A stretch of 64,000 nucleotides of DNA from a bacterium (GTDB taxonomy: Bacteria; Patescibacteriota; Minisyncoccia; Moranbacterales; GWC2-37-73): positions 114,319 through 178,318 of the forward strand of contig JBAXDL010000001.1 of NCBI GenBank assembly GCA_037140955.1, in the 5' to 3' direction. Shown one piece after another: positions 4,891 to 46,651 of this stretch. How positions within the stretch are numbered: the first letter of the stretch is position 1; each line of letters begins with the position of its first letter. A program made the position numbers and the translations under genes. The notes beneath the pieces were generated by a model, which saw nothing but the letters and a program-made list of their open reading frames with translations, was not told where the DNA came from and did not search any database.

Positions 4891-4945
4891 ATGCGCCGTC
4901 CATCAATATTTCTCATTGTCTTTTGGTTGCTTCCATTGCATAGAG

Positions 4946-5707
4946 TTATTTAATATCATTCCAAATCTTTTTAAAAACTTCTCGCATATTATGCGCCAGC
5001 ACGGCATCATGAATTTCCACCAGATAAAACGGTTTCTGACGAGTGACTATAACAACAAAATAATCCCCGATAGCCCAAGTTGTTGCCGAAAAATCCAAAT
5101 CCTTACCCCAGAATTTAATATTGCGCTCTTTAGGAAATTCTTCTTTGATTTTTTCTTCAATTTCTGATTGATTGCTTAACAGTTTTACATGCATATCAGG
5201 ATATTTTTTCCAAAACCAATCAATCCATTTTATATTATGCTCAACAAAACTTGGATCTTGAAATCCCCAAAATGTTTTGTCCGATCTTCGCATACTTTCA
5301 TACCAACAACGCTCTGTTTGCTTGAAAAGAAAATCCTCTAATTCATCCTCCTCAATAAAGCGTATTTTTGGCACAGAAAAACTTTGACTTTTTGGCATTT
5401 TTTCCAACTCTTCTGCCAACTTATTCGCAATTTTCTTCTTCTCTTTCAATTCTTCTTGCTCGCGATAAAACATTTCTTCTACATCTTCAGGCGATGAAGG
5501 AGAAACATACATGATCCTTGTTGTAATATCCTCAATAACAAGTCCTTTGTCCTTCAATTTTTCCAACAACACATATACCGTTGAACGATTGATATTAGTA
5601 GCTTTGGCAAGCCTTGCTGGCGTTGTTTTGCCTTGTTCAAAAAGGGCGAGATACACCTCGATTTCTTTTTCAGACAAGCCTAATTTTTGCAGTAATTCTT
5701 GTATCAT
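4946..5707 (-). CDS. TrmB-family HTH transcriptional regulator (paralog 1; divergent C-terminal domain)
   Basis: N-terminal LGLSEKEIEVYLALFEQG...RLAKATNINRSTVYVLLEKLKDKGLV winged-HTH typical of TrmB. Confidence 0.6.
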   Translation of the reverse strand: MIQELLQKLGLSEKEIEVYLALFEQGKTTPARLAKATNINRSTVYVLLEKLKDKGLVIEDITTRIMYVSPSSPEDVEEMFYREQEELKEKKKIANKLAEELEKMPKSQSFSVPKIRFIEEDELEDFLFKQTERCWYESMRRSDKTFWGFQDPSFVEHNIKWIDWFWKKYPDMHVKLLSNQSEIEEKIKEEFPKERNIKFWGKDLDFSATTWAIGDYFVVIVTRQKPFYLVEIHDAVLAHNMREVFKKIWNDIK

Positions 5708-5715
5708 ATTACTCT

Positions 5716-5744
5716 ATTTTAGCAGTTTATTAACTTTTTGTCAA
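5716..5744 (-). promoter_or_regulatory. promoter of TrmB paralog 1 (TTGACA-N17-TAAAAT) with duplicated TTGTCAACA direct repeat
   Basis: minus-strand reading TTGACAaagtgTTGACA-17nt-TAAAAT then 8 nt to the ATG; near-leaderless. Confidence 0.4.
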
Positions 5745-5819
5745 CACTTTGTCAACAGTTTTATTTGGCTTATTTAAAGGATTATTTAACAATATTTCTC
5801 TTAATTTGTTTACATACTA

Positions 5820-5848
5820 TTGACTATGTTGATAACTTACTATATACT
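5820..5848 (+). promoter_or_regulatory. sigma70-like promoter TTGACT-N17-TATACT driving the divergent small-ORF operon
   Basis: matches the spacing and -10 TATACT recurring at loci B and C; followed by a conserved ACG..GATGAAT +1 hairpin. Confidence 0.45.
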
Positions 5849-5918
5849 ACGTAGTCATGATGAATTAGCAATAATGATTCATGACCTCACAGTTCATTTT
5901 CAAATAATTAACAATACT

Positions 5919-5930
5919 AGTCGACGGACT
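5919..5930 (+). promoter_or_regulatory. leader hairpin AGTC-GACG-GACT immediately upstream of SD (copy A1)
   Basis: three copies in the window with compensatory stem changes; followed by TAAAACG..AGGAG and an ATG. Confidence 0.4.
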
Positions 5931-5949
5931 TAAAACGAGGAGGTGCGCC

Positions 5950-6168
5950 ATGGCAACACCATACGGGCAAATTACTACTGTAGTGCCGAGACGGGGCGGT
6001 CTCTCCATAGTTACAGAAAACTATGGAGATTCCGAGGACCACTGGGTTTTTGGAGATCGACGATCCAGACAAATTGCCAAAAGGCACTGGGTGCGTCAAT
6101 CAAACAAAGGCTCAGACTCGGGTGGAAACTATTGGCACACTTTCAAAAAATCTCCCATTGGAGGATGA
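5950..6168 (+). CDS. small hypothetical protein (72 aa, G/R-rich)
   Basis: strong SD GAGGAGG 6 nt before the ATG; lies in an unusually GC-rich segment. Confidence 0.4.
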   Translation: MATPYGQITTVVPRRGGLSIVTENYGDSEDHWVFGDRRSRQIAKRHWVRQSNKGSDSGGNYWHTFKKSPIGG

Positions 6169-6591
6169 GGAGATTAATAAACTTGAACTTTGACGGCGCT
6201 TCTGAATTCTCAGATCGCAATGGCTAGCCACCGTTATTGGGCTGCGGGGTGTGAAAGATCCTCGAAAACATAGACCAAGTTCATATATTGGCAAAGTTTA
6301 TGCCTCCATAATGAACCCAGTGGCAACGCATTTGCATAAGACTAATCAATATGTTGATTAGCAGCAGCGTTCTTTTAGTTGCCGAGTCTGTGTAATTCTT
6401 CAATCATTTAATATCTCGTCAATATTTTTTGATTGCGTAGTTTCTCCTGGCTATGTGAGGCCGAACGTTTTCGGTCAACAGGAAAAAAACAAAGGCAAGG
6501 AAAAATCCTTGTCTCTCTAATTGAAATAATTTCTTGAAAATTATTTCATAGGAGATAAAAGTTTTTCACAAACACTCAAAGGAGATGTGCC

Positions 6592-6834
6592 ATGGAAGCA
6601 ATCGTTACACTGTTTGAGTTAACCACGGAGCTGGAACTCTCATTAGCATTGATCAAGCTGGACAAAAAAGTAGAAGCTATATTGTCTGATGACAAACTTC
6701 GCTTTGAGCAATATCCTCATGATGAAAATCCATTTTACACAAACAATGCCAATTTACGTTGTAATGTTAGAGTAGAAGATGTTGTGACAATATTACAGAA
6801 CAAAATATTGATCATCAGAAAAATTTCAGTTTAA
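6592..6834 (+). CDS. small hypothetical protein (80 aa)
   Basis: SD AAAGGAG; acidic N-terminus. Confidence 0.4.
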   Translation: MEAIVTLFELTTELELSLALIKLDKKVEAILSDDKLRFEQYPHDENPFYTNNANLRCNVRVEDVVTILQNKILIIRKISV

Positions 6835-6843
6835 AAAAACTAA

Positions 6844-6855
6844 AGCCGACGGGCT
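6844..6855 (+). promoter_or_regulatory. leader hairpin AGCC-GACG-GGCT upstream of SD (copy A2)
   Basis: covaries with copies A1 and C. Confidence 0.4.
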
Positions 6856-6877
6856 AAAAACGCAAAGGAGTTGCACG

Positions 6878-7045
6878 ATGAATATTTTTGTAATTTTAGT
6901 TATGTGTTGGGCTGCTTGGTTACTATTGGCGCTTATCGTCTTGGTGACACTATACATTTTCCAGATTATTTACTACCTAGCTCTTTTTGGAGCAGGGCTA
7001 GGAATGATAATCGAAAAAGCGACAAGAAAGGAGACTATAAAATGA
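6878..7045 (+). CDS. 55-aa hydrophobic two-helix membrane peptide (MNIFVILVMCWAAWLLLALIVLVTLYIFQIIYYLALFGAGLGMIIEKATRKETIK)
   Basis: ATG 7 nt after AAAGGAG; strongly hydrophobic; preferred over the overlapping TTG-start frame 6871-7053. Confidence 0.4.
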   Translation: MNIFVILVMCWAAWLLLALIVLVTLYIFQIIYYLALFGAGLGMIIEKATRKETIK

Positions 7046-7078
7046 GGCGTTAGTCTATCATGACTATCGCCTTTTTTC
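7046..7078 (+). terminator. rho-independent terminator
   Basis: AGGCG..CGCCT stem followed by TTTTTT. Confidence 0.4.
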
Positions 7079-7121
7079 TTTTCTGCATTTTTACATTATA
7101 CATTATACAAAATACATTATA

Positions 7122-8015
7122 CTATCGTATTTCAATCCCCCTTAATGCCGCCACTCTCTCCTCAATCGGAGGATGTGTGGAAAAAAGTTTTGAAATGTTG
7201 CTACCCTTAAGCGGATTTGAAATGTATAGATGAGCTGTGGCGCGGTTTGCTGCTTCAAGTGGTTCTGGGTCAGCTGAAATTTTTTCCAAAGCCTTGGCAA
7301 GCCCTTCTGGATATCGTGTGAGGAGCGCAGCGGAAGCATCTGCCAAAAATTCTCTTTTGCGTGAGATGGCCACCTGAATCAACATGGCAGCAATTGGAGC
7401 CAAGATTGAAAGCACGATTGCCAAAATGAAAAAAATCATTTGCAATTGCCCGCCACCTTCATTGTCTGAACTTCTTTTACTGAAAATTCCATAGCGAAAC
7501 CAATCTGCCATCAAAGCAATAAATCCAACCAAAACGACAACAACTGTTGAAAGCAAAATGTCACGATTGCCAATGTGTGAAAGTTCATGCGCAATCACGC
7601 CTTCCAATTCGATTTTTTCAAGCTTGTCCAAGAGTCCGGTTGTCACACAAATCACTCCATGTTCAGGATCTCTTCCTGTTGCAAAAGCATTGGGTGCAGA
7701 GTCTTCAATGATATATATTTTTGGCGCCGGAAGACCAGCAGTTATGCACAGGTTTTCCACAAGGTGGTATAACTCCCTATTTTCCTCATGTGTAACCTCT
7801 TTTGCGCTACTCATAGAAAGCACAATTTTGTCACTCCACCAATATGAACCAAAACTCATGGCAATTGAAAACAAAACTGCACCATATAAAATCGAGCTGT
7901 TACCCATTGCTCCTGCAAAAACATAGCCCACGCCAATCACAAAAACAAGAAAACCTGAGATATATAACCAGGTTAATCTTGTGTTTTTGTCTGCTTGATC
8001 GTATAAAGTCGCCAT
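7122..8015 (-). CDS. htpX: zinc metalloprotease HtpX
   Basis: HELSHIGNRD (HEXXH) motif; 4 TM segments; C-terminal STHPPIEERV. Confidence 0.85.
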   Translation of the reverse strand: MATLYDQADKNTRLTWLYISGFLVFVIGVGYVFAGAMGNSSILYGAVLFSIAMSFGSYWWSDKIVLSMSSAKEVTHEENRELYHLVENLCITAGLPAPKIYIIEDSAPNAFATGRDPEHGVICVTTGLLDKLEKIELEGVIAHELSHIGNRDILLSTVVVVLVGFIALMADWFRYGIFSKRSSDNEGGGQLQMIFFILAIVLSILAPIAAMLIQVAISRKREFLADASAALLTRYPEGLAKALEKISADPEPLEAANRATAHLYISNPLKGSNISKLFSTHPPIEERVAALRGIEIR

Positions 8016-11810: not shown

Positions 11811-12983
11811 TTAGTCAGCAATGCAACGAACAGACATGGCTGTTGCTTGAAGGTTGAGATTTGATGATATGATATCACCAGCAGCGTTGCTGCCAAAAAA
11901 CAAAGAAGTAAGAGTAACACTGCTTACGTTTTTTATAGCTGTTGATGAATAATAATGACCGTCAGTGTCCACATGATTTATTGTTCCATTGTAGGTACGA
12001 AATCCAGCAGGAACTAATTTTAGTTTTGAAGAATAAAGCTTACCCTTACAATCAAAGCCGAAGTAACAATTTTTAAATCCTATACCAGTAAGAAGAAAAT
12101 CCCATTCTGCAAATGTTGGAATATGAAATCCGTCAGGGCATGGATTACTGATACCAGGCGTGTTTGAATTTGTCAACCAAAGCTCAGTATTTACCTGCGT
12201 ATCAGGAAGCCAGCTAGAATAACTATAGCCAACCGGAGGTAGCCAAAACGGTGACTCTATAAAGCTTTCAGTATATGGTGCTACTACATTGTAAGATGAG
12301 TCTATTGTGACCTTATCATATTTTATAACACTACTTAATGCTAAAGGCGAAGGCTGCCCTCCCCAGGCTGTATATTGATGACCATCAGCTTTTCTGCCCC
12401 ATTGAAAATACCAACCATAGCCAGCATCATCAGTGGCTGAAGTTGGCAGGTCTTTTGCTCCCAAATTCCTATCCAACCAACATCTACCATCTTCAGCTAA
12501 AACTTTTCCGTAAGTAATTCCATCTTTAGAAACTGTTCCCGTGCAATCAACTCCAACCTTAACACTGACAGACCTGGCTGTTCCATTGTATGTTGCGACT
12601 GATTTAATAATTTTAACATCATTTCCCTTGCTGGTGTTGCAAATAATCGGAACCATTGCTGCTAGATCAGAATATAGATAAAGGTCATATCTTCCTGCTC
12701 CAGGAATTGATAAATTCTTAATCACACCATTATCGCAGGTGCTAAAAACAGGAATAGTATTTATTACTGAAGTTAAATTACTGCCAGCATTAATAGTTTT
12801 GATTGCAAGTTGAGCTCCACTATCAGCTGTTTGCAAAGATTGTACCGAGGAGGATGTTGCACTGGCTGATTTTTTTTCTATTATTGTTGATGAGGAAATA
12901 GCCACTGCAATAGATAGCATCATGCCAAGGACAATGAGAGAATATGCTAGGATGGAACCTTGTTTTTTGTTGCTTTTGAACAT
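11811..12983 (-). CDS. secreted/membrane-anchored protein with C-terminal Fib_succ_major-type domain (paralog A)
   Basis: N-terminal signal-anchor; C-terminus CPDGFHIPT..EWDFL...SVRCIAD resembles the Fibrobacter major paralogous domain. Confidence 0.55.
   Translation of the reverse strand: MFKSNKKQGSILAYSLIVLGMMLSIAVAISSSTIIEKKSASATSSSVQSLQTADSGAQLAIKTINAGSNLTSVINTIPVFSTCDNGVIKNLSIPGAGRYDLYLYSDLAAMVPIICNTSKGNDVKIIKSVATYNGTARSVSVKVGVDCTGTVSKDGITYGKVLAEDGRCWLDRNLGAKDLPTSATDDAGYGWYFQWGRKADGHQYTAWGGQPSPLALSSVIKYDKVTIDSSYNVVAPYTESFIESPFWLPPVGYSYSSWLPDTQVNTELWLTNSNTPGISNPCPDGFHIPTFAEWDFLLTGIGFKNCYFGFDCKGKLYSSKLKLVPAGFRTYNGTINHVDTDGHYYSSTAIKNVSSVTLTSLFFGSNAAGDIISSNLNLQATAMSVRCIAD
12346..12972. repeat. 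627-bp perfect direct repeat, copy 1 (identical to 13517-14143)
   Basis: identity read base-by-base; covers the N-terminal ~209 codons of paralog A. Confidence 0.9.
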
Positions 12984-13023: not shown

Positions 13024-14172
13024 TTAGTCAGCAATGCAACGAAGCGACAATCCAAAATAGCGCCAAAGTGGACCAGCACCAATTTGATTATTATCAATAA
13101 TCGTCCAAAACATTTGATATTCATGACTAAATGGAGGACTAACCGTCCAAAAATAACCAACCTCACCCTTTCTCTCAATGCTCGCATAAGCATTTCCTCG
13201 ATAACCAGCGGATACAAATTTTAATTTTGAATTAAATGCTGGTACTATGCAGTTAGTGTTACAACCATACAGCCCAGCACTATTCAAAAGCTGCGCAAAT
13301 TCTTGCTGAGTTGGAACACGAAAGCCTGATGGACAAGGGTTATTACTACTTGTAAGATCCCAAAGACTATTGTCCTGTAATGTATCAGGAAGCCAATCAA
13401 ATTTACTAAATAGTGCTGGATTTCCATCTGCACCCAAAAAATATGTATTATACGGCGGCTGAACCTCATGATTAACTATGATTGCAAGATTATTCATCAC
13501 AGAGCTACTCAATGCCGGCGAAGGCTGCCCTCCCCAGGCTGTATATTGATGACCATCAGCTTTTCTGCCCCATTGAAAATACCAACCATAGCCAGCATCA
13601 TCAGTGGCTGAAGTTGGCAGGTCTTTTGCTCCCAAATTCCTATCCAACCAACATCTACCATCTTCAGCTAAAACTTTTCCGTAAGTAATTCCATCTTTAG
13701 AAACTGTTCCCGTGCAATCAACTCCAACCTTAACACTGACAGACCTGGCTGTTCCATTGTATGTTGCGACTGATTTAATAATTTTAACATCATTTCCCTT
13801 GCTGGTGTTGCAAATAATCGGAACCATTGCTGCTAGATCAGAATATAGATAAAGGTCATATCTTCCTGCTCCAGGAATTGATAAATTCTTAATCACACCA
13901 TTATCGCAGGTGCTAAAAACAGGAATAGTATTTATTACTGAAGTTAAATTACTGCCAGCATTAATAGTTTTGATTGCAAGTTGAGCTCCACTATCAGCTG
14001 TTTGCAAAGATTGTACCGAGGAGGATGTTGCACTGGCTGATTTTTTTTCTATTATTGTTGATGAGGAAATAGCCACTGCAATAGATAGCATCATGCCAAG
14101 GACAATGAGAGAATATGCTAGGATGGAACCTTGTTTTTTGTTGTTAAAAAAGGTTTTATTTTTTTTGAACAT
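13024..14172 (-). CDS. secreted/membrane-anchored protein with C-terminal Fib_succ_major-type domain (paralog B)
   Basis: N-terminus identical to paralog A; divergent C-terminus NPCPSGFRVPTQQEFAQL...SLRCIAD. Confidence 0.55.
   Translation of the reverse strand: MFKKNKTFFNNKKQGSILAYSLIVLGMMLSIAVAISSSTIIEKKSASATSSSVQSLQTADSGAQLAIKTINAGSNLTSVINTIPVFSTCDNGVIKNLSIPGAGRYDLYLYSDLAAMVPIICNTSKGNDVKIIKSVATYNGTARSVSVKVGVDCTGTVSKDGITYGKVLAEDGRCWLDRNLGAKDLPTSATDDAGYGWYFQWGRKADGHQYTAWGGQPSPALSSSVMNNLAIIVNHEVQPPYNTYFLGADGNPALFSKFDWLPDTLQDNSLWDLTSSNNPCPSGFRVPTQQEFAQLLNSAGLYGCNTNCIVPAFNSKLKFVSAGYRGNAYASIERKGEVGYFWTVSPPFSHEYQMFWTIIDNNQIGAGPLWRYFGLSLRCIAD
13517..14143. repeat. 627-bp perfect direct repeat, copy 2
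   Basis: identical to 12346-12972. Confidence 0.9.
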
Positions 14173-27824: not shown

Positions 27825-28589
27825 CTAATTCTTTGGCAAGGTGTTCCAAAGAAGATCGAATGTCAGCTTTTGCAAGTCAGCAAGTTCTTTTGACTCAATT
27901 AAGGTCGCCATTTTTTCCTTCCAAGAAACAATAAGTATTTTGTTGTTATAGATGTTTACCTCAGGAGAAAAGCTCATTTTCTCATCAGGCAAAAAACGTG
28001 TATCGCGCATTTCTTCTTGATTAAATGGCACTCTTTCCATTGATAACTTATTTCTTGGAATAATAGCTTTAATAAAAATCTTACTTCCCGCGCGACGTTT
28101 GTAATATTCTGGAAAAAAGTTTGGCAAAGCTGCATGCATTGTTTCAGCATTAGCATATGCCAAAATAATTTCCTTAGATGTCAGCGTGTCTTCATAGGCC
28201 TCGCGCATCCCCTTTTCACCCTCAAAAAACTGCACTTTTGGTTTGCTTGCACTAAAAATATTCTGCATGGATATTAGTTGTGGCAATAGCTGTGAAACTT
28301 TGTTTTTTTGTTTTTCAATTTCTTTTTGTTTTTCTTCTTTTTCCCTCTCAAGGTATTGCAAAAGATTTTTAGGATCAAGTGCATTAAAAAAGGTGCCTGC
28401 TCCCTTTTTATACTTACTTACAAGGCCTTTTTGCATCAAAAGTTCACAAATGTCATATACAGTCGTTCTGTTTAGTCTTGTCTTTTTGGCCAAATCGCCA
28501 GGCTTTTTCGAGCCAACTTCCAAAAGCGCCAAATAAACTTGGGATTCTTTTTCAGAAAAATTCAGCTCTTTTAACAAGTTTTTTATCAT
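27825..28589 (-). CDS. TrmB-family HTH transcriptional regulator (paralog 2)
   Basis: ELNFSEKESQVYLALLEVG...RLNRTTVYDICELLMQKGLV; own promoter TTGACA-17-TATAAT upstream. Confidence 0.6.
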   Translation of the reverse strand: MIKNLLKELNFSEKESQVYLALLEVGSKKPGDLAKKTRLNRTTVYDICELLMQKGLVSKYKKGAGTFFNALDPKNLLQYLEREKEEKQKEIEKQKNKVSQLLPQLISMQNIFSASKPKVQFFEGEKGMREAYEDTLTSKEIILAYANAETMHAALPNFFPEYYKRRAGSKIFIKAIIPRNKLSMERVPFNQEEMRDTRFLPDEKMSFSPEVNIYNNKILIVSWKEKMATLIESKELADLQKLTFDLLWNTLPKN

Positions 28590-28773
28590 ATTTTTTATAT
28601 TGTTGTGGAAAATATTTCAACATTTTTATTATATCAAACAAGCCACTATTTGTCAATATCTATATTTTAAAAACAATATGCTTCCACATAAATTGACAAA
28701 ATAATATATACTACGTTGTTAAGATGAATCAGCAAAAACATCCTAACAACATTTAACCACTAACTTCAAATAT

Positions 28774-28983
28774 ATGAATAATCTACAAAAGCTTGTTGCA
28801 AAATATGAAGATTACAAACTTAGCATCCTAATCAAAGAGATTGAAGATACTGAGAAAGAGAATTTAAGTAAAAGTAAAGAAAAAACAAAATATATAAGCC
28901 CTCGTTCACTTTTTCTTGGAACCCAAACGAATACTGAGAAGATATTTATCATTCTTGAACAAAAAGAGTATTCCCCTGTATAA
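28774..28983 (+). CDS. small K/E-rich hypothetical protein (69 aa)
   Basis: ORF downstream of the divergent promoter and +1 hairpin; weak SD. Confidence 0.3.
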   Translation: MNNLQKLVAKYEDYKLSILIKEIEDTEKENLSKSKEKTKYISPRSLFLGTQTNTEKIFIILEQKEYSPV

Positions 28984-29143
28984 TCGGCAAGAAAAAAATC
29001 ACCTTCTTGCCTCTCCTGTTGAGTTAGTCAAATTTTGATTGATTCATAAGAGAAAAGTTCTTTAAAATTTTTACAACCCATAACGACACGGAGCTCTCAC
29101 TTAGTGAGGCACGATTACGGAATATGGGGAGAGGGAGAACAAA

Positions 29144-29320
29144 ATGAGTGAAGAGTGTAATTGTGATTGGTGTTTGGGATATTCATCCAGTGACGATTTG
29201 TCATTAGCAGCAAAAGAAGTGCGCATAGTTGAAGAGCGTCGCAGGCGGGAAAGCAATATAAGCGACGATGACAGGGTGCGAGTAGGTCGCATCCTTCGAG
29301 ACTTAGGTATTGTGAGGTAG
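29144..29320 (+). CDS. 58-aa Cys-containing small protein (MSEECNCDWCLGY...)
   Basis: SD GGGGAGAGGGAG 7 nt before the ATG; ends at the shared terminator; overlaps the implausible minus ORF 29101-29364. Confidence 0.35.
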   Translation: MSEECNCDWCLGYSSSDDLSLAAKEVRIVEERRRRESNISDDDRVRVGRILRDLGIVR

Positions 29321-29323
29321 CTT

Positions 29324-29357
29324 AAAGGCGGAACGTAAAACGTTCCGCCTCTTTTTT
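29324..29357 (+). terminator. terminator AAAGGCGGAACG-TAAAA-CGTTCCGCCTCTTTTTT (copy 1 of an identical 34-bp element)
   Basis: same sequence at 31446-31480. Confidence 0.6.
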
Positions 29358-29397: not shown

Positions 29398-30174
29398 CTA
29401 TTTAACGCTATTCCAAACAATCTCAAACATTGATTTGTATGTCTGCGCAACATCACTGCTTTCAATTACCACAGCCATAGGCTCATCTTTAAAAGAAAAG
29501 ATGGCCAATTTGTTTCCAAAAATAATATTATCGGTTGGGAAAAGACACTCTTTTGGTGCAAATTTGATCTGATGAATGCCTTGCTCTCTTCTGTTTGTAT
29601 ATTCAATAGATTCCTTGTCTGATTGTAAAAGTTCGCGCACCCTTGTTTGATTTTTGGCAATATCGGCAAAATGTTTTTCTGCTTTTGCCAAAAGCTCTTT
29701 TGGAATTGCACCCAATGAGGCAAAGATGTCGATTTCTTTTTCTTTAAATATTTCATCATACAATTTCACTACGCTTTCACCACCTTGATAATATGTCACC
29801 TTTGGCTTTTCTTTCTTAGTATTGAACATTGCCATAAGCTCTGGCATATTGGCTTTTATAAGTTGCTGTTTCTCTCTCTGCTCTTCCAAAAGTTGTTCAG
29901 GGGAATTGGCAGTATAGAGAACTTTTGCCTTGCGTGGCAAAAGCATTACCAATCCTTTCATGCGAAGTTCTTCCAAGAGCAGATAGGTTGTTGGTCTTTT
30001 TGTCCCAGCTTTGACCGAAATTGCAGGAACTGAGCCTTTTCCCATCTGCAAAACAGCCAAGTATACTTTGGCTTGTTTTTCATTGAGTCCTAAATTCATC
30101 AGCACTTCTTCGAGTTGCATATTCTTTTCTTTGTCATTCCGGGCTTGACCCGGAATCCAGGCCCGCATTTTCAA
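29398..30174 (-). CDS. TrmB-family HTH transcriptional regulator (paralog 3); true start probably at 30120 (MQLEEVL...)
   Basis: LGLNEKQAKVYLAVLQMG...TKRPTTYLLLEELRMKGLV; the first 18 codons of the ORF are read through the MITE-like repeat. Confidence 0.6.
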   Translation of the reverse strand: MKMRAWIPGQARNDKEKNMQLEEVLMNLGLNEKQAKVYLAVLQMGKGSVPAISVKAGTKRPTTYLLLEELRMKGLVMLLPRKAKVLYTANSPEQLLEEQREKQQLIKANMPELMAMFNTKKEKPKVTYYQGGESVVKLYDEIFKEKEIDIFASLGAIPKELLAKAEKHFADIAKNQTRVRELLQSDKESIEYTNRREQGIHQIKFAPKECLFPTDNIIFGNKLAIFSFKDEPMAVVIESSDVAQTYKSMFEIVWNSVK

Positions 30175-30221
30175 TTTTTATCTCAACTTAGAACCTGGAT
30201 TCCCGCCTTCGCGGGAATGAC
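30133..30221. mobile_element. MITE-like palindromic element, copy 1 (GTCATTCCGGGCTTGACCCGGAATCCAGG ... CCTGGATTCCCGCCTTCGCGGGAATGAC)
   Basis: two hairpin arms as terminal inverted repeats around a 32-nt spacer; second copy at 36826-36905. Confidence 0.55.
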
Positions 30222-30342
30222 ATGATTATTACCTATATTTTCATTATATCTCATATCAAATAAAATGTCAATATTACTGACTACATATTCATATTATACT
30301 TTATTATAGCTATATTTTAGCTATTTAATTAGGCACTATAAT

Positions 30343-30371
30343 TGACACTTTTGCTATTTAGCTGTATACTA
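30343..30371 (+). promoter_or_regulatory. promoter TTGACA-N17-TATACT with conserved ACACTGTTAAGATGAATTAACA +1 hairpin
   Basis: same architecture as 5820-5848. Confidence 0.45.
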
Positions 30372-30453
30372 CACTGTTAAGATGAATTAACAAATCTCAA
30401 TAAAAGTTCTTTCAAAATTTAATCACCTAAACCCAAATGAAAGGAGAGCTACC

Positions 30454-30699
30454 ATGAAAGAATTCTCAACTAGTTGCCTAGATTACATTGCTTTCTTAGC
30501 GATTATACCTACAACTGCAATGTCTTTCGTTATTACTGGCGCATTAATTATGGGAGGAAAAAATCACGATACACTCTCATTTATTCAGGCTGTTATTGGA
30601 GCAGCTATAGGATGGATTATTTGGTTTATAATTCAGAGGCTTTTTAAAAAATACTACATTCACTGGGATGAAATACTAAAACTTAATAATGGAAGGTGA
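30454..30699 (+). CDS. 81-aa two-helix membrane protein
   Basis: SD AAAGGAGAG; hydrophobic helices with small-residue (GxxxA/G) motifs. Confidence 0.45.
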   Translation: MKEFSTSCLDYIAFLAIIPTTAMSFVITGALIMGGKNHDTLSFIQAVIGAAIGWIIWFIIQRLFKKYYIHWDEILKLNNGR

Positions 30700-30804
30700 T
30701 TAAATTTCAGGCGAGAAAGTTTAACAAAACTTCTCTCGCCTCTCTCATTGAGTTCATACTAAGGGTGAATTCACAGGAGAATAGTTCATTAAAAACTACA
30801 CAAT

Positions 30805-30816
30805 GGCCGACGGGCC
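30805..30816 (+). promoter_or_regulatory. leader hairpin GGCC-GACG-GGCC upstream of SD (copy C)
   Basis: covaries with copies A1 and A2; followed by TTAAACGAAAAGGAG and an ATG. Confidence 0.4.
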
Positions 30817-30837
30817 TTAAACGAAAAGGAGATTATC

Positions 30838-31413
30838 ATGCGAAATTATCAAATTAACAATTGTGCTGAATGCAAAAAAACTTTGGAAAAAAATGAGAAC
30901 GTAAATATCCGTCATGTATACGGAATGCCAGAAGCTATATGTGATTCATGCTGGAATAAAAGAAAAGTTTTACGGTCTTACATTATTTCCGATCTTCCTC
31001 AGGAAATTTATCACGAAGAAGATGTATACCTAGGTTACTTCCCTGCAGTCATACTAAGTGAAGTTTGTGAAATAGAAGAATTTCAGGGATTAAACAGTGA
31101 TGGTAGAATAAAGAGGGATAATAGTGGCTGTTATTTGGACTGTTATTATCCATCGTGCTCAGAAGACATTCAGAGTGATTTATTTGAAGAAATTTGGAAA
31201 AATAAAAACACTAAAAGTTGGAAGAAAGAGGTTTGGCATTTTGCGGGAGATTCTTCCTGGAGCATTAATGTTTACAGTCAATATTATTCATCGCAAAATA
31301 TTAAAATTGCACGGATTTACCAAGAAGCTAATATGGAAGTAATTTTTCCAGAAAGCTTACGACCTTTCATTTGCAGAGAAGCAATTGAAAAAGATATGTT
31401 CTTTCGAGACTAG
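30838..31413 (+). CDS. Cys-rich hypothetical protein with N-terminal zinc-ribbon-like motif (191 aa)
   Basis: NNCAECKK...CDSCWNK; later CYLDCYYPSC. Confidence 0.5.
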   Translation: MRNYQINNCAECKKTLEKNENVNIRHVYGMPEAICDSCWNKRKVLRSYIISDLPQEIYHEEDVYLGYFPAVILSEVCEIEEFQGLNSDGRIKRDNSGCYLDCYYPSCSEDIQSDLFEEIWKNKNTKSWKKEVWHFAGDSSWSINVYSQYYSSQNIKIARIYQEANMEVIFPESLRPFICREAIEKDMFFRD

Positions 31414-31445: not shown

Positions 31446-31480
31446 AAAGGCGGAACGTAAAACGTTCCGCCTCTTTTTTT
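31446..31480 (+). terminator. terminator, copy 2 of the identical 34-bp element
   Basis: AAAGGCGGAACGTAAAACGTTCCGCCTCTTTTTTT. Confidence 0.6.
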
Positions 31481-31529: not shown

Positions 31530-34500
31530 CTACACCACCCTCTCCACCTCCTCCAAACTCGTCTCCCCTTCCAAAACTTTCAATAATCCATCTTGCTCCA
31601 TGGTGATCATGCCATTTTCAACTGCCTTGTCACGAATTTGTGAAGATGATGATCCTTGCGTGATCAATTCTTCAATGTCGCGATCAACCACCAAAACTTC
31701 GCTGATTGTTGTGCGTCCTTTATATCCAATATTATTGCATTTTTCGCAACCATTAGGTTCAAAAACTTTTTCTATTGCCGGAACGATGATACCTGATTTT
31801 TCTGAAATACTTTCCAAGATTTTTTTCATGCTAGCAACCTCATCTTGATTTAATGCTCTTTCCTTTTTGCAATTACAAAGTTTTCGCACCAATCGCTGAG
31901 CCATCAAAGCATTGACCGCTGTGGCCAAATCATCAGAGCGAACACCCATGTTGATCAAGCGCTGAATTGAGCCAGCAGCATCATTTGTGTGCAGTGTAGA
32001 GAGAATTGAATGACCAGTCAGCGCTGCCTGAATTGCAATGTTGGCAGTTTCCTCATCACGAATTTCACCAATCATCATGATATCAGGATTTTGACGAAGC
32101 AATGCTCGCAAAGCTGTTGAAAAAGAATATCCCTCTTTGTCATTAACAGATGTTTGCAAAATTCCATCCAGCTGATATTCAATCGGGTCTTCAACTGTGA
32201 TGATCTTTACTTCTGGATTGTTCAAAACTTTAAGTGCACTATACAACGTGGTTGTTTTTCCAGACCCAGTTGGTCCAGTGGTCAAGAAAACTCCATTTGG
32301 TTTTTTCGTTTCAGTCAAAATCTTTTCCAAATTTTGTTTCCTGATTCCCAATTTTTCAAGATCAAGCGCAACTGATGATTTGTTGAGAAGTCGCATCACC
32401 ACCGTTTCCCCATATCCTCCCAAAATTATTGAAACACGAACATCAACTTTTGTGTCAGTGATGTGTTTGTATGGCTTTTCCAGGGCAATTGAAAAACGAG
32501 AATCCATCACGCCACCACGCACTTCAGTGGAAAAGCCACTCAAAAACTTGATGCTTCCAAGCAGGCTAGGATATTCATTCAAAGGTATTTCCGCAATTGT
32601 TTGCAAGATTCCATCCATGCGATAACGAACTTTCACACTCTTTTCTTCTGGTTCAATGTGAATGTCACCAACATTCAACAGCAAACTGCTGGCAAAGATA
32701 TATTTAGCACTACTTTTTTGATTTGATTTTTCAATCAATTCCTTGAGATTTTCTCTGGGTGAAATTTTCTCTTCCACAAGCACCATGTCTTCTTCTGAAA
32801 TATCAATTGAGCGAGACATTGATTGTGCCATCAATTTTTCATAAATCTCTTCCAAAAATTCTGTCTGTCCTGTTGCGCGCCAAACTTCATCCATTGATGT
32901 AAGCCCTTCAATGGCTTTCAAAATTCCGTCTTGTGCCATGGTGATCATTCCATCTTCCAAGGCTGTTTGTGCAATTTCTCGTTCTCCACCCATTTCCAAA
33001 ATCAATTTTTCAATGTTCTCTGAAATTGTCAGCACCTCAAAAATTCCAATGCGCCCCTTGAATCCAAGTCCATGACATTTGTCACAACCAACTGGACGAT
33101 AAAGTTTTTCAATATTTTTTGGTATTTCAATTTTTGCTTTGGGAGAAATGATGGCAAGAATTTTCTTGATACTATCAGTAGTTTCCTTGGCTGGAACATA
33201 TTCCTCCATGCAATTTGAGCACAATTTTCGCACCAAGCGTTGTGCAATAAAAGCATTCACAGAAGGAGCAATAATGTTTGGCTTCACTCCAAGTTCAATA
33301 AAGCGAGGAATTGAAGCTGGCGCATTGTTGGTGTGCAAAGTTGAAAGCACAAGATGACCCGTAAGGGCAGCGTTCACTGAAATATCAGCTGTTTCCTCAT
33401 CACGAATTTCACCAACCAAAATAACATCAGGATCTTGACGCACAATCGCGCGAAGACCTTCCGCAAAAGTATAGTTTCGATCTTTGGCAATTTGTGTTTG
33501 TGAAATATTTTTCACTTCATATTCAATCGGATCTTCAATTGTGATTATTTTTACACCGGCTGTGTTTAACTTGTTAACAAGTGCATAAAGTGTGGTCGTT
33601 TTCCCGCTGCCAGTTGGTCCTGTTGTCAAAATCATACCATGCGGTTTTGCAACTTCTCTTTGCACGCTTTCATAGGCCAAGCCTCGCAATCCCAAATCTT
33701 CCACGGAAAGCATAATATCAGCCTGACTCAAAAGCCTCATAACAACTGACTCTCCATGATTTCCTGGAATAATATTTGTTCTCACATTTATCTTACCTTC
33801 ATCCATCTCAACCGAAAAATGACCATCTTGCGCAATGTCGCGAATGTTGATTTTCATCTTTCCCATCATCTTGATGCGGGACAAAATGAAACGATAGGTT
33901 TCGTTTGGAAATTTTCCAACATCCTGCAAAACACCATCGATGCGAAAACGCATTCTGACATCTTCCTCTTGTGGTTCAAAATGAACATCACTGGCCTTCA
34001 TTTTCACAGCGCCAGCCATGATAATTGAAATGATTTGAGTTGTTGGAATTTCCTGAATTCTTTTTTTCAGATCCAGCATGTTTCCAAAGTCTTTTTCAAA
34101 TTTTTCCAAATCTTCACCACTCAAAGTGATTTGCATTGCTTCCAGATTTTCCAACATTGGAATTTCAGCATATCTTTTCCAGATTTTTTCCAGAGAAGAT
34201 TTTGAAATTACATACAAATAAACAACCCAGCCTTTTTCAGACTTGAGCGCTTCAACATATTCGATTGTTTTTTTATTTGTCGGATCAACAACTCCAATTC
34301 TGGCTTCCTTACCTGCTTTTTGAAAAACACAAAGACCAAATTCTCTTGATTCTTTTTCGTCAATAACTCTCAAATCATCCGCGGCAACTGGAAAAATATT
34401 CAAATCAACATAGGAAAGATTGTTAGCATTGGCAACTTGAGCAGCTTGCTCCTCTTCTGATTGCCCTCGCATGCGCTGCATAATCTTTTCAGATTGTTCG

Positions 34501-36873: not shown

Positions 36874-36905
36874 AAAACCTGGATTCCCGCCTTCGCGGGA
36901 ATGAC
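36826..36905. mobile_element. MITE-like palindromic element, copy 2
   Basis: same terminal hairpins as 30133-30221, 24-nt spacer. Confidence 0.55.
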
Positions 36906-36998
36906 AAAATTTTAAAACAAAAAAAGAGTACCCAACTCTTTTTTTGTTATGCATTTTCTTGATGAACTTTATGAACTTGAAAAACTTGATGAACTTTT

Positions 36999-41673: not shown

Positions 41674-41992
41674 CTATCGGCTCGCAGAAACTTTCAGTTT
41701 CAGTTTGAACTTATTCAGTTCAGACTTAACTTCCGGTTTTGCGAAATCCGACAGAAACACACGAAGAGACTGAATCTCAGCGTTCCGCTTTTCAGCTTCA
41801 CGCTTTGAACCATCGATTCCGAAAAATCGAAGTGTCTTTCCTTGTGTCCGCATTTCTCTTTCCAGAGATTTGCGGCATCCGCTGCATACAAGTGGTGCTG
41901 ACCAAAGCTTGGTCACCTTGTCTCTTTTCAGAGCCAATGTGAACTTTGGCAGTCCCTTGCAGCCTGGCAGGATGTTGCAGGAATCGGTCATG
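41674..41992 (-). CDS. hypothetical Cys-containing protein (106 aa from MTDSCN)
   Basis: SD AAAGGAGGTG before the ATG at 41992; CNILPGC...CSGC. Confidence 0.4.
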
Positions 41993-41995
41993 CTA

Positions 41996-42349
41996 TCACC
42001 TCCTTTCTTGGACCTGGTTAGGGTGAACTTCAACAGTCGATATGGGTTCGGAATCTTCTTCCTCATCCCACACGAACACGGACGTTATGAAATAATACTG
42101 TGGTTTTTCTTCGAAATTCAGTCCCACGCGTACTATCCATATCAGATCTTCAAATTCCTCGCATCCTTCACCAGCATAAAGCTCTGGTGTACTCAGAATG
42201 AAAAATGGTCCACTTATGCGACCAGCATCATCAAATACATAGACTTCCGATCCAAGTGGATACTTGTGCGTGAAGTCAACATATTGATTCTGCATTTCCA
42301 GGCTCAAAAGTTGAAACTGGTGATCTTCCATTGGAATCACATGATTCAT
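41996..42349 (-). CDS. hypothetical acidic protein (117 aa from MNHVIP)
   Basis: SD AAGGAGG before the ATG at 42349. Confidence 0.45.
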   Translation of the reverse strand: MNHVIPMEDHQFQLLSLEMQNQYVDFTHKYPLGSEVYVFDDAGRISGPFFILSTPELYAGEGCEEFEDLIWIVRVGLNFEEKPQYYFITSVFVWDEEEDSEPISTVEVHPNQVQERR

Positions 42350-42514
42350 GGCATCCTCCTTGGATGGTTTGAAATTTTTCTCATAGAAAATCATTACCCA
42401 ATGTAACAATCTTCATAAGAGAGGCGAAAGATTCTTCGCCAAGATTGATCAGTTCTGTTGACAGGTTGATCAAACCCCGCTTGCCACCTTTCGGCGCAGC
42501 AGATGAAGGAGTAG

Positions 42515-42589
42515 TTACTTTCCCTGCTTAGCTGCATTTGCAGCTTCGCGCGAAAAGTATACTACGCCATTAACGACGTAATAACTCAT
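42515..42589 (-). CDS. 24-aa peptide MSYYVVNGVVYFSREAANAAKQGK directly downstream of leader element copy 3
   Basis: SD CGGAGGTGA plus ATG in the same arrangement as the other two leader copies; very short, so uncertain. Confidence 0.25.
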   Translation of the reverse strand: MSYYVVNGVVYFSREAANAAKQGK

Positions 42590-42615
42590 GCGGTCACCTC
42601 CGTTTTTTATGAAAT

Positions 42616-42660
42616 CCCTCATATATACCAACTTTAAATCAAAACGAGCATATATGAGGG
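42616..42660. promoter_or_regulatory. 45-bp inverted-repeat leader element, copy 3 (CCCTCATATATACCAACTTTAAATC...ATATATGAGGG)
   Basis: arms differ from copies 1-2 but remain mutually complementary; ACCAACTTTAAA core conserved. Confidence 0.5.
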
Positions 42661-43212
42661 AAAAATTGTTAAAGTCCAGTCGTGAGTGAACAGCGAATCA
42701 AAAACCATAGAAGTGCACAAGGCACAACTTGGGAAAAAATAGTCAAAAAAAACCTTTGCTTATATACAGATCTTTTTTACTCAGATATGTGGCCAATATA
42801 TATATGTGCCAATATGGTAATGAAATCTGAAAGCGCTCCAAGATGCCGACTGTGCTTTGTTTCTCCATATTCTGTGATATTCTCCTTCAAAGCTGCGCAC
42901 ATCTCAGTACTCTTAACTACCTATCTTTTTGAGGAACTCGCTGTCCGCTTTTCTTAGCATGACTCCGTAGTATAGCGCATGATAAACGTTTTGTCAAGTG
43001 TCTTTGACAAAATAAAGTAAATTACTTTATTTCAGCTCTAATTAAAGCCTTTTAATCTTAACATTTTGATATATTTTACTAACATATTTCAGCAGAAAAG
43101 ACTCATAATTTTGTGAAAAAATAGTGTTTAAGCTATAAAACAGTTTTAATTTGAATATAAGCCAATAAAAAGGCACTCCTTATATAGCAATGAAAAAATA
43201 AGTTTATATCTA

Positions 43213-43241
43213 TTGACAAATTTCCCACAATCTGCTAGACT
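43213..43241 (+). promoter_or_regulatory. promoter TTGACA-N17-TAGACT
   Basis: canonical spacing; no long ORF downstream. Confidence 0.4.
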
Positions 43242-43249
43242 GTTTTGTA

Positions 43250-43527
43250 ACGTTAGTTATTTGAAAAAAGTATTTTGGGTTTTGAAGTTAACCCCTAACC
43301 GCCAGTACGGACCCACGAAAGGGGGTGAGATCATGGACGATTAACTTTCCTCATTAAAAGCAATTTATTTGTGAGAGGAAAAAATCGTTCAATGAGAAGT
43401 ACAAGAAAAAATAAAAAGGAGGAAAGGATCATGAATGACTAGACTAGTGAAGATTATTATTGTATTTGCAAGGCTCGAACTCAACGACACATAATGTGAG
43501 TCGTGCCAAAAAATTTCTACTCAGACA
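43250..43527 (+). ncRNA. candidate small RNA / leader transcript containing minimal ORFs with strong SD
   Basis: between the promoter and terminator; AAAAGGAGGAAAGGATCATGAATGACTAG (MND-stop) and AGGGGGTGAGATCATGGACGATTAA (MDD-stop). Confidence 0.3.
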
Positions 43528-43567
43528 AAAGCCCCGAACGAAATCGTTCGGGGCTCATTTTTTTATA
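43528..43567. terminator. bidirectional terminator GCCCCGAACG-AAAT-CGTTCGGGGC with A/T tails
   Basis: 10-bp GC-rich stem. Confidence 0.6.
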
Positions 43568-43577
43568 AAAGCATATT

Positions 43578-46536: not shown

Positions 46537-46651
46537 AACTTCCTCCTTTTTTAAAATACGAGAGCATTTTTCTCCTATGAAACCACCACAATGATGAACT
46601 CGATAAGAGAGGCAATAGAAATAGATTCATTTCCCTTGCTCAAGAAATTTC

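Follow-up and report, generated by a model that had tools for sequence, protein, structure and literature searches.

The DNA analysed here, which we call the window, is a 64-kb stretch (64,000 nucleotides, AT-rich at ~36% GC) of contig JBAXDL010000001.1 in assembly GCA_037140955.1, positions 114,319 to 178,318, from a bacterium of the order Moranbacterales within the Patescibacteria, or Candidate Phyla Radiation (CPR). It contains five genes, R1 to R5, for paralogous regulators of the TrmB family. Four of them, R1, R2, R3 and R5, each face a divergently transcribed array of short open reading frames (ORFs), and we refer to these arrays as units 1, 2, 3 and 5 (Table 1). We found that what is shared and conserved at these loci is a non-coding control architecture, and not a duplicated regulator-plus-effector pair. 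Its parts are an array promoter followed by a 5' stem-loop (M1), a mini-hairpin directly in front of some ORFs (M2), and a two-hairpin element between cistrons (M3). The window holds four, possibly five, copies of this lineage-specific architecture. The loci are flanked by genes for an HtpX-type M48 peptidase, LemA, a Mur ligase, FemAB, pyruvate kinase, RuvB and a PilB/T2SSE-type ATPase, and because these are ordinary housekeeping genes we place the arrays in the core chromosome, with no obvious mobile island. R1 and its neighbors are 99.9-100% identical to contigs of ENA assembly ERZ27300110 and of Logan run SRR7053542, and the nearest named homologs of R1 come from metagenome-assembled genomes (MAGs) of Candidatus Moraniibacteriota and Patescibacteria.

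An earlier note on this DNA, made from the sequence alone, had proposed five TrmB-family paralogs, and this holds. All five match the Pfam TrmB family PF01978 (43.8-59.2 bits against a cut-off of 25.6; E-values from 2 x 10−11 to 4 x 10−16) and can be aligned over their full length, with 20-36% mutual identity. A hidden Markov model built from the five recovers exactly these five genes within the window and no sixth. The note had given R3 as the ORF at 29398-30174; the regulator is there, but its start is likely to be the ATG at 30120, and the 18 codons upstream run into a palindrome resembling a miniature inverted-repeat transposable element (MITE), which gives the ORF the spurious N-terminal extension 'WIPGQARNDK'. 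Such MITE-like palindromic repeats (of the GTCATTCCCGCGAAGGCGGGAATCCAGG type) occur in the window at 30125-30227 and 36876-36911, and also at ~4940-4995 and 2690-2760 in L007, one of the related loci that we fetched from other assemblies (designated L001, L003 and so on), where they sit between the promoter and the start codon of two TrmB genes.

None of the five paralogs has a match at E ≤ 0.01 to PF11495, the effector-binding domain with the sugar-binding subdomain, and they are not sugar-sensing TrmB proteins proper. We modelled one of them, R1, with AlphaFold2 (mean pLDDT 92, from a 48-sequence alignment). The R1 model consists of a winged helix-turn-helix (wHTH) domain, a long helix, and a truncated C-terminal domain with a phospholipase D-like (PLD-like) fold, in a protein of ~260 amino acids, which is the make-up of the TrmBL2-like subgroup. 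Its best matches in the Protein Data Bank, by Foldseek, are the archaeal TrmBL2 structures 5bpd and 5bqt (E ~10−12 over the full length; 5box is also matched), and the match to TrmB itself (3qph) is weaker (E = 9 x 10−8). The C-terminal half of R1 also resembles the PLD-fold proteins PLD6/Zucchini. In the recognition helix, R41, T43 and Y45 do not vary among the five paralogs or among the 48 aligned sequences. In Pyrococcus and Thermococcus, the recognition-helix tyrosine (Y49/Y50) of TrmB, TrmBL1 and TrmBL2 matters for DNA recognition, and TrmBL2 is a chromatin protein of high abundance that represses globally and binds coding as well as intergenic DNA (PMC4158304). In our loci, the locus-specific pairing of each regulator with an array argues for specific regulators rather than for sequence-independent chromatin binding.

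The four regulators that face a unit each have a near-consensus promoter of their own, opposed to the array promoter. Beside these regulator promoters we found repeats that differ between groups of regulators. The R1 group has a tandem repeat of TTTGTCAACAG with an 11-nt period, which is kept in the orthologs L003, L005 and L007 and is still recognisable in the distant ortholog L065, a locus without M1; another group has the palindrome TTGTCAT-N5-ATGACAA. On sequence grounds these group-specific repeats are the best candidates for operators. The candidates overlap the regulator's own promoter, which suggests autoregulation. Orthologs of R1 in Patescibacteria range from 86% down to 44% identity, one of them (L065) coming from a Taylorbacteria MAG, and orthologs of R3 are found in L035 (89% identity), L021 (80%) and L020 (70%).

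The arrays begin with M1. The 23-nt leader consensus TATACTACNNTGTTAAGATGAAT has matches at 5843, 28707 and 30365 in the window, against 0.00 expected, and lies within a 46-nt repeat present in three copies (5829-5874, 28693-28738 and 30351-30396). The leader of the unit facing R5 is a variant, CCGTTAACATGAGTTAACAAATGC (46979-46956, reverse strand), in which 21 of 25 positions match the leader of unit 3. The claim that four regulators face divergent units sharing a leader is therefore borne out, and the similarity among the leaders is far above what an AT-rich background gives. The core promoter attributed to all four units, TTGACw-N17-TATACT, is present as described in units 1 and 3 only: unit 5 has TATTAT as its −10 box, and in unit 2 the TTGACA is just 8 nt from the TATACT, leaving a weak −35 box of the form TCCACA-N18.

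Because the 5' arm of the M1 stem starts ~6 nt after the −10 box, the stem-loop is expected at the very start of the transcript. In 62% of 29 loci, compared to 5% of control windows, a 3' arm that complements the 5' arm at 7 or more of 8 positions is found within 75 nt. The two arms covary between loci–for example, GTCATGA/TCATGAC, GTTAAGAT/ATCTTAAC, GTCAAGAT/ATCTTGAC and GTTATGAT/ATCATAGC. The loop between them varies from 4 to ~50 nt, so an RNA hairpin fits better than a protein-binding site with fixed spacing. We also considered whether the AUG in ...AAGAUGAAU... could start a leader peptide and rejected this possibility, as the AUG is not conserved (R is A or G).

In M2, a mini-hairpin, four base pairs close a G(A/G)CG loop, and (T)AAAACG and a Shine-Dalgarno (SD) sequence come after it. 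Its pattern, CGRCGGRCNWAAAACG, has three matches in the window against 0.18 expected, all of them directly before unit ORFs, and it recurs in L007. At the other end of the arrays, units 1-3 finish in a canonical terminator, and unit 5 in a hairpin with a weak T run. A 38-nt stretch of the unit 1 terminator recurs without a mismatch where the L007 array ends, beside the HtpX gene.

M3 lies between cistrons, at one junction in each unit of the window. A profile made from ten copies (searched with nhmmer) matches the window at 6509-6569, 29007-29067, 30736-30795 and 46615-46562 (reverse strand) and nowhere else in the 64 kb, and a covariance model (CM) run with filters off gives four significant matches, identical to those of the profile. 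Since all four units contain M3 and it is found nowhere else in the window, grouping them together is correct. The first of its two stems is a strong hairpin, placed directly behind the stop codon, that ends ≤4 nt from the sequence CUCUC in all 44 copies, and the 48 nt upstream of CUCUC have a mean minimum free energy of −15.9 kcal/mol, compared to −5.6 kcal/mol in controls. In stem 2, the basal CUCU is paired with an SD-like GGAG (RNAalifold, 13 copies). Among 27 distinct copies, 97.6% of cells in stem 2 are paired, as against 37-57% when the partner is slid, and there are 37 double-change cells and five covarying pairs; none of 500 shuffles equalled the observed score. Several of the pairs are mostly G-U, and the CM scores 24-52 bits on the plus strand but 9-12 bits on the reverse strand, so the structure is strand-specific, which points to RNA rather than to a DNA palindrome. 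A start codon with an SD follows M3 at 33-87 nt in 36 of the 44 copies (median ~45 nt). Some copies are bracketed by an outer inverted repeat, AGGTGATTAAAT...ATTTAATCACCT, that overlaps the upstream stop codon, and copies are up to ~88% identical between unrelated cistrons and between genomes.

M3 thus combines covariation, strand specificity and fixed position, the general marks of a structured cis-regulatory RNA. Against Rfam 15, a tRNA is the sole match anywhere in the 64 kb; relaxed searches of the segments 5700-7130 and 42350-43620 yielded sub-threshold matches only, and none of M1, M2, M3 or the non-coding tail described below had a family there. We also examined M3 as an attC site or a MITE and rejected both: on inspection of the alignments it lacks R and L boxes, its orientation is fixed with respect to transcription, and it occurs inside arrays only.

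The ORFs of the units, which we call the cargo, carry signals of translation. In seven of the nine there is an SD 4-9 nt from the ATG, six of them having AGGAG 6-7 nt upstream, mostly as AGGAG-N7-ATG, and all four second-or-later ORFs in the window have an SD of their own. By codon usage, all nine score above the antisense range and eight of the nine score best in frame 0, at values below those of typical housekeeping genes. The small ORFs therefore do carry a coding signal, and this is strongest for the 72-aa ORF of unit 1, which has two homologs with 79% and 67% identity. In three pairwise comparisons 32-41 of 57-64 nucleotide differences fall at third positions (35 of 57 in one of them), dN/dS is 0.07-0.26, and the homologs differ by an in-frame indel and by synonymous switches between the arginine codons AGG and CGT. 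On this pattern of substitution the 72-aa ORF is clearly a real gene, although the annotation of assembly L001 does not include it. It lies within a stretch, 5850-6520 (671 nt), whose GC content is 45-50% against 35% and whose folding z-score is −7.1. We considered whether the whole stretch is one large structured non-coding RNA (ncRNA) in which the 72-aa ORF is spurious, and rejected this for the ORF on the dN/dS, the third-position changes and the in-frame indel. Behind the gene is a conserved non-coding tail, the beginning of which (6190-6290) is ~94% identical to L031 with a 1-nt indel. In L031 (1340-1665, 651-1000) a second Arg/Gly-rich ORF, of 75 aa, is trailed by a similar-looking tail, which suggests a recurring module made of a small basic protein plus a structured RNA.

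Between one unit and another, the cargo proteins show no relationship. The earlier list of small proteins lacked a 69-aa ORF of unit 2 (28774-28983). This 69-aa protein is 33% identical to a 71-aa protein of L007 (E = 3 x 10−14), and its family, the best-conserved cargo family that we found, has seven members among 5.8 billion proteins, and the L007 contig carries five of the seven; it was also the only family recovered in TBLASTN searches of the window's small proteins against all fetched loci. For the 191-aa protein, a HMMER search of 1.84 billion representative proteins returned only its own 162-aa version, which starts at Met30, and an exact-sequence look-up of the 191-aa form was empty, so its start codon is uncertain. 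Searching PADLOC-DB 2.0 with the nine cargo proteins gave nothing significant and one marginal match (E = 0.0038); R1 resembles only the wHTH part of the Csa3/CasR models in that database.

Table 1. Features of the TrmB loci in the window (positions from the first nucleotide of the window; aa, amino acids; TM, transmembrane segment).
Feature	Position	Strand	Details
R1, TrmB-family regulator, TrmBL2-like	4946-5707	−	PF01978 E 3.7 x 10−16
R1 own promoter	5744-5716	−	TTGACA-N17-TAAAAT; promoter scan
R1-specific candidate operator	5737-5758		tandem repeat TTTGTCAACAC/TTTGTCAACAG; overlaps R1 promoter (joint region 5716-5758, −)
M1, unit 1	5820-5885	+	TTGACT-N17-TATACT 5820-5848; stem-loop GTCATGATGAAT...ATGATTCATGAC 5854-5885
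M2, unit 1, first copy	5919-5937	+	AGTC-GACG-GACT + TAAAACG; directly before SD of 72-aa ORF
72-aa basic Gly/Arg/Trp-rich protein, unit 1	5950-6168	+	coding
Conserved non-coding tail behind 72-aa gene	6190-6493	+	no ORF; codon score negative in all frames
M3, unit 1	6494-6569	+	stem 1 6494-6513; stem 2 with CUCU:GGAG closure 6515-6554; nhmmer E 1.3 x 10−7; CM 34.9 bits, E 5.5 x 10−6
80-aa ORF, unit 1	6592-6834	+	AGGAG-N7-ATG; codon score 0.17, best in frame 0; called as gene in two public assemblies; no family match
M2, unit 1, second copy	6843-6862	+	AGCC-GACG-GGCT + AAAAACG; precedes 55-aa ORF
55-aa hydrophobic peptide ORF, unit 1	6878-7045	+	AGGAG-N7-ATG; codon score ambiguous
Terminator, unit 1	7046-7080	+	GGCGTTAGTCTATCATGACTATCGCC + T run
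R2, TrmB-family regulator	27825-28589	−	PF01978 E 3.2 x 10−14
R2 own promoter	28656-28628	−	12/12 consensus match; promoter scan
M1, unit 2	28683-28750	+	TATACT 28707-28712, weak −35 TCCACA-N18; stem-loop GTTGTTAAGATG...CATCCTAACAAC 28715-28750
69-aa ORF, unit 2	28774-28983	+	family ending ...K-x-Y-[CS]-P-V; no SD
M3, unit 2	28986-29067	+	nhmmer E 1.6 x 10−12; CM E 0.0016
Conserved leader after M3, unit 2	29068-29143	+	74.5% to L007, there before a different gene
58-aa Cys-containing ORF, unit 2	29144-29320	+	SD + ATG; codon score best in frame 0; no family match
Terminator, unit 2	29326-29356	+	95% identical to unit-3 terminator
R3, TrmB-family regulator	29398-30120	−	likely start ATG at 30120; PF01978 E 2.2 x 10−11
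M1, unit 3	30342-30392	+	TTGACA-N17-TATACT 30342-30370; short hairpin TGTTAA-GATGAA-TTAACA 30375-30392
81-aa two-TM protein ORF, unit 3	30454-30699	+	AGGAG-N7-ATG; weak C-terminal similarity to 85-aa TM ORF in L035 array
M3, unit 3	30694-30795	+	opens with AGGTGATTAAAT overlapping stop codon; nhmmer E 1.6 x 10−15; CM 49.8 bits
M2, unit 3	30804-30823	+	precedes 191-aa ORF at 30838
191-aa Cys-rich ORF, unit 3	30838-31413	+	AGGAG SD; orphan
Terminator, unit 3	31448-31478	+	same hairpin closes orthologous L035 array
Tentative fifth unit	41674-42997	−	SD-led ORFs 41996-42349 and 41674-41991 (117, 105 aa); no Pfam match
R4, TrmB-family regulator	43578-44324	−	no divergent unit; PF01978 E 1.8 x 10−12
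86-aa ORF, unit 5	46276-46536	−	AGGAGG SD; codon score best in frame 0
M3, unit 5	46562-46640	−	best window match; nhmmer E 5 x 10−14; CM 51.9 bits, E 7 x 10−10
92-aa ORF, unit 5	46652-46930	−	AGGAG-N7-ATG; codon score best in frame 0
M1 variant, unit 5	46962-47011	−	TTGACA-N17-TATTAT 47011-46983; hairpin GTTAAC-ATGA-GTTAAC 46977-46962
R5 own promoter	47082-47109	+	promoter scan
R5, TrmB-family regulator	47139-47885	+	PF01978 E 2 x 10−13

The synteny between regulator and array recurs in relatives, as the earlier note had proposed could be looked for. We scanned one genome per species, for 185,579 species, for M1 and obtained 23 matches, ~20 of them in MAGs of Moraniibacteriota or the 'Parcubacteria group', with up to five per genome. 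In 18 of the 23 there is a divergent TrmB gene 59-1039 nt upstream of M1, and the rest are mostly truncated or non-CPR records. No TrmB gene is near the matches in one Acidobacteriota and one Bacteroidales record, which look fortuitous; the match in L020, labelled Bdellovibrionales, has an R3 ortholog (70% identity) beside M1. The regulators linked to M1 fall into at least 10 groups that are <45% identical to each other. A separate scan of metagenomes of the Joint Genome Institute (JGI) for M3, with its flanks fixed and its interior free and independent of M1, gave 28 loci, 17 of which have a divergent TrmB gene upstream; in most of the remaining loci the sequence extends <1 kb upstream. Exact patterns served as seeds for both sets, so the sets lean toward copies whose flanks are conserved. 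The two scans show that both modules are tied to TrmB genes. In the two distant R1 orthologs that we examined, L064 and L065 (49-50% identity), M1 is absent, which makes the architecture a Moranbacteria-level innovation over an older regulator family. By its distribution among these sequences, M1 appears as a feature of Moranbacteria and not as a property of the R1 family.

The cargo turns over rapidly behind this conserved architecture. Orthologs of R1 keep the HtpX...R1...pyruvate kinase synteny and the intergenic region, yet they face different genes–the 72-aa, 80-aa and 55-aa ORFs in the window, a 180-aa protein plus an S-adenosylmethionine (SAM) methyltransferase in L003 (86% identity), the methyltransferase alone in L005 (79%) and L064 (50%), and in L007 (71%) three other small ORFs, behind which comes one more TrmB-plus-array unit. 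The methyltransferase is a conserved class-I enzyme of 233-234 aa (L003 3411-4112, L005 4065-4766, L064 3073-3777); it is probably what R1 targeted ancestrally, with small ORFs taking its place in the lineage of the window. Similarly, the R3 ortholog in L035 (89% identity, with the same RuvB...ATPase synteny and the same terminator) faces five genes, compared to two in the window, and one of the five belongs to the 69-aa family, which in the window is represented in the R2 unit. In the window and in L034 the 72-aa gene, with its tail, comes first after the promoter, but in L031 both are internal, after an M3-type element; the homology of this module extends from the SD to inside the following M3. 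Among 48 candidate cargo ORFs ≤1.5 kb from M1 in the sampled loci, called heuristically and some of them possibly spurious, 40 are singletons. The statement that the arrays encode only small proteins is true of the window but not of its relatives, where the cargo reaches 287 aa and includes REC-like, SPFH, DUF4116 and methyltransferase proteins. Cargo families that recur are those of the 69-aa protein, of the 72-aa protein and of a REC-like protein that has a Zn ribbon. Thus these are not isolated regulators, and they do form one architectural family, as had been suspected, but 'duplicated regulator-plus-small-effector cassettes' is not the most apt name for them: the paralogs are old, and the cargo is unrelated and turns over.

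In one subgroup of TrmB loci (L008, L015, L024, L027, L013, L026 and L010), a three-helix leader comes after M1 and then ~1.1 kb of conserved DNA with few ORFs, which may be a large non-coding RNA. This DNA precedes the first SD-led ORF; L008 and L015 are 88% identical over 1,112 nt, and the 1.1-kb ORF-poor leader of this subgroup is absent from the window.

The fifth array, near R4, is tentative. It has the promoter TTGACA-N17-TATACT (42997-42969) followed by ACGGAGTCATGCTAAG (to 42950), and starts 580 nt downstream of R4, in tandem rather than divergently. A palindrome, TTGTCAA-N6-TTGACAA, covers its −35 box, and a weak M3-like element at ~42440-42380 is non-significant (CM E = 1.3). Close to this element, at 42444-42588 on the reverse strand, we noted a match to alpha_tmRNA (RF01849) that scores 23.4 bits against a gathering threshold of 50, with an E-value of 10−4 for the small region searched. 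It overlaps an SD-led ORF of 24 codons ending ...EAANAAKQGK. ARAGORN finds no transfer-messenger RNA (tmRNA) in the window, and the match is probably due to chance. At 43213-43560 on the forward strand and convergent with R4, a promoter (TTGACA-N17-TAGACT) and a strong terminator lie ~320 nt apart. The interval has two 3-codon mini-ORFs behind strong SDs and otherwise none, its folding z-score is −3.5, and it matches no Rfam family; it could be a small RNA or a leader-peptide transcript.

Our preferred explanation, to which we give a probability of roughly 0.6, is that each TrmBL2-like protein is a one-component regulator acting locally on its own divergent array, with M1 and M3 as common modules acting at the RNA level. 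The array would be transcribed from a near-consensus sigma-70 promoter, and the transcript would begin with the conserved M1 stem-loop. Each regulator would bind in the shared intergenic region, at a repeat or palindrome specific to that paralog, and from there control two promoters, its own and that of the divergent array. It would probably act as a repressor, and a signal sensed through the C-terminal domain would lift the repression. The hairpins of M1 and M3 would shield the polycistronic mRNA or divide it into segments and would determine how much each small cistron is expressed, M1 serving as a 5' protective hairpin and M3 organising the translation of each cistron. The cargo would consist of small proteins, mostly orphans of membrane, secreted and Cys-rich types, that can be exchanged and that turn over fast between relatives.

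Several observations weigh against this explanation. R4 has no divergent unit and is preceded by three co-directional genes. We infer regulation by the adjacent TrmB protein from gene arrangement alone, and the cargo gives no functional clue (no significant match for the window cargo in Pfam, PHROGs or PADLOC). The M1 hairpin is short or imperfect in ~38% of loci and its loop is very variable in length, and because our search pattern fixed its 5' arm, the conservation of that arm is partly circular; likewise, many copies of M3 were selected by a pattern that set their outer pairs, and these pairs never vary. M1 could also be a shared operator, because an identical M1 adjoins diverse paralogs with a conserved recognition helix. 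TATACT-ACG-N2-GTYAAGATRAAT would then be a common DNA site, overlapping the transcription start, for all TrmB paralogs or for one global factor, and the downstream complementary arm would be secondary, a reading that is also compatible with an RNA role. The motif spans −10 to ~+20, the classic position for a repressor, R41, T43 and Y45 do not vary across the paralogs, the 5' arm is conserved much better than the 3' arm, and ACTACGTAGT is itself a DNA palindrome in several loci. We nevertheless consider a shared operator unlikely: the 3' arm tracks the 5' arm at distances of 4 to ~50 nt, a change that a fixed-spacing dimeric site does not need; the two distant R1 orthologs examined lack M1, and L065, with an R1-type protein of 49% identity, keeps the R1 tandem repeat; and a common site for at least 10 co-resident paralogs would mean complete cross-talk.

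The turnover of the cargo invites comparison with a platform of integron-like arrays, in which small ORF cassettes are captured, lost and shuffled behind a sensor-controlled promoter, with M3, or stem 1 of it, providing a site of recombination or a patch of homology. This would account for different cargo at 89% regulator identity behind an unchanged promoter, M3 and terminator, for the 72-aa gene and its tail, bounded by SD and M3, being the first cistron in the window and L034 but internal in L031, for the same cargo families at different positions in different arrays, for the singleton majority (40/48) and for M3 copies up to ~88% identical across unrelated cistrons and genomes. What lies beside the arrays, however, is a TrmB gene and in no case an integrase or recombinase (the sole recombinase of the window is a serine recombinase at 403-1767), M3 has no attC boxes of the form RYYYAAC...GTTRRRY, its G-U-rich strand-specific pairing and its fixed position relative to stop codons and SDs fit an RNA role, and ordinary homologous recombination plus gene loss could give the same pattern. 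Shuffling of this kind is in our view decidedly unlikely, and it is equally doubtful that the M3-punctuated arrays form a Moranbacteria-specific cassette system, recombinase-independent or with an unrecognised recombinase, in which M3 is both RNA element and joint. If that were true, ORF modules bounded by SD and M3 would swap among about a dozen sensor-controlled slots per genome, and an ultra-small symbiont would gain a shuffling library of surface or host-interaction proteins. Cargo that is hypervariable between strains would also be expected of toxin-antitoxin-like or anti-phage modules, with the small proteins as effectors and TrmB as a repressor or antitoxin-like partner; small hydrophobic peptides (55, 81 and 52 aa) and Zn-ribbon-like Cys-rich proteins are frequent in such systems, and L003 has an AbiEii gene downstream of its R1 ortholog. 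PADLOC, however, finds nothing for the cargo and only a generic wHTH for R1, PHROGs finds nothing, the cargo of relatives includes SAM methyltransferase, REC-like, SPFH and DUF4116 proteins, and the flanks (HtpX, LemA, RuvB, PilB-like ATPase, pyruvate kinase) are housekeeping genes; we regard a toxin-antitoxin-like or anti-phage role as improbable. That the leaders are similar through AT-rich background, or that the ORFs are spurious and the units are genes for ncRNAs, is scarcely credible. The GC-rich, strongly folding stretch 5850-6520, the orphan status of several ORFs and the non-coding tail at 6190-6493 would agree with it, but the counts of leader (3 against 0.00) and M2 (3 against 0.18) matches, the SDs in 7/9 ORFs and best frame 0 in 8/9 speak against it, and it is refuted for the 72-aa ORF by its dN/dS, third-position differences and in-frame indel, and for the 69-aa ORF by conservation at the protein level.

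Three further features of the window are separate from the TrmB loci. The gene for the large serine recombinase (Resolvase and Recombinase domains in an identical public contig) adjoins tRNA-Ser(GGA) at 1934-2019, and the pair may mark the edge of an integrated element that extends beyond the start of the window. An exact 300-nt duplication (12346-12645 and 13517-13816) lies within two neighboring paralogous genes, 11811-12983 and 13024-14172. The PilB/T2SSE-like ATPase, of 1008 aa, has an internal repeat (31566-32304 against 32904-33648, period 1338-1344 nt) that points to tandemly duplicated halves.

CPR bacteria, or Patescibacteria, make up a large share of bacterial diversity and few of their lineages have been cultured; to our knowledge, almost nothing is known about how they regulate their genes. 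The locus family described here offers a testable CPR regulon architecture: its promoter is defined, it has putative operators specific to each paralog, and neither of its two conserved RNA elements is in Rfam. The covariation in M3 is the support that is usually required for proposing a new RNA family. A reduced genome here keeps several, and probably about a dozen, sensor-plus-array loci with mostly orphan cargo, and the small membrane, secreted and Cys-rich proteins with their fast turnover are candidates for a variable interface with a host or the environment. M1 and M3 also provide sequence handles for finding such arrays and the small proteins that gene callers partly miss, and could aid the design of expression cassettes for CPR genetics.

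In a literature search of incomplete coverage we found no paper that joins TrmB with Patescibacteria, CPR, Parcubacteria or Moranbacteria. The TrmB regulon architecture is a real, lineage-specific feature that we have not found described, and it includes at least one well-supported new RNA motif, M3. It resembles several known systems in part. Like integron arrays, it has a single promoter beside a divergent gene, short orphan ORFs separated by imperfect palindromes, and a content that varies between close relatives. In contrast to integrons, the divergent gene encodes a TrmB protein (18/23 M1 loci and 17/28 M3 loci) and not an IntI tyrosine recombinase, there is no attI, and the M3 consensus, a hairpin followed by CTCTCATTGAG-stem-TTCATAGGAG, has no attC R or L boxes in alignments inspected by eye; the second-or-later ORFs of the window have their own SD, the pairing is strand-specific and RNA-like, and mobility is putative. 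Hairpins that stabilise or segment mRNA are known from the RNase III sites of phage T7, the REP/BIME elements in malEFG and the 5' stem-loop of ompA in Escherichia coli, and the STAB-SD of Bacillus thuringiensis cryIIIA. Our loci share with them a hairpin at the 5' end, hairpins after stop codons, SD-like sequence away from starts, and fixed orientation. They differ in that M1 and M3 have a distinct sequence and structure with no match in Rfam, are almost always beside TrmB genes in the loci that we examined, and have a putative role in processing; the SD-like GGAG of M3 is paired with CUCU and not exposed.

Compared to TrmB proper, a sugar-sensing protein of ~340 aa, the paralogs described here are shorter (248-258 aa) and lack PF11495. 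They share with TrmBL2 (5bpd, 5bqt) the same wHTH and recognition tyrosine, the long helix and PLD-like C-terminal domain seen in the model of R1, the lack of the sugar-binding subdomain, and a similar length (264 aa in TrmBL2). They differ in being bacterial (CPR), only ~20% identical to it, and present as many paralogs per genome, four of the five in the window standing at a specific divergent promoter. The arrangement is also that of the divergent regulator/operon pairs of the LysR, TetR and MarR types, with the same short shared intergenic region and back-to-back promoters. What distinguishes the TrmB loci from these pairs is that at least 10 paralogous pairs share a core promoter, a leader and an intercistronic RNA, whereas their targets are not conserved.

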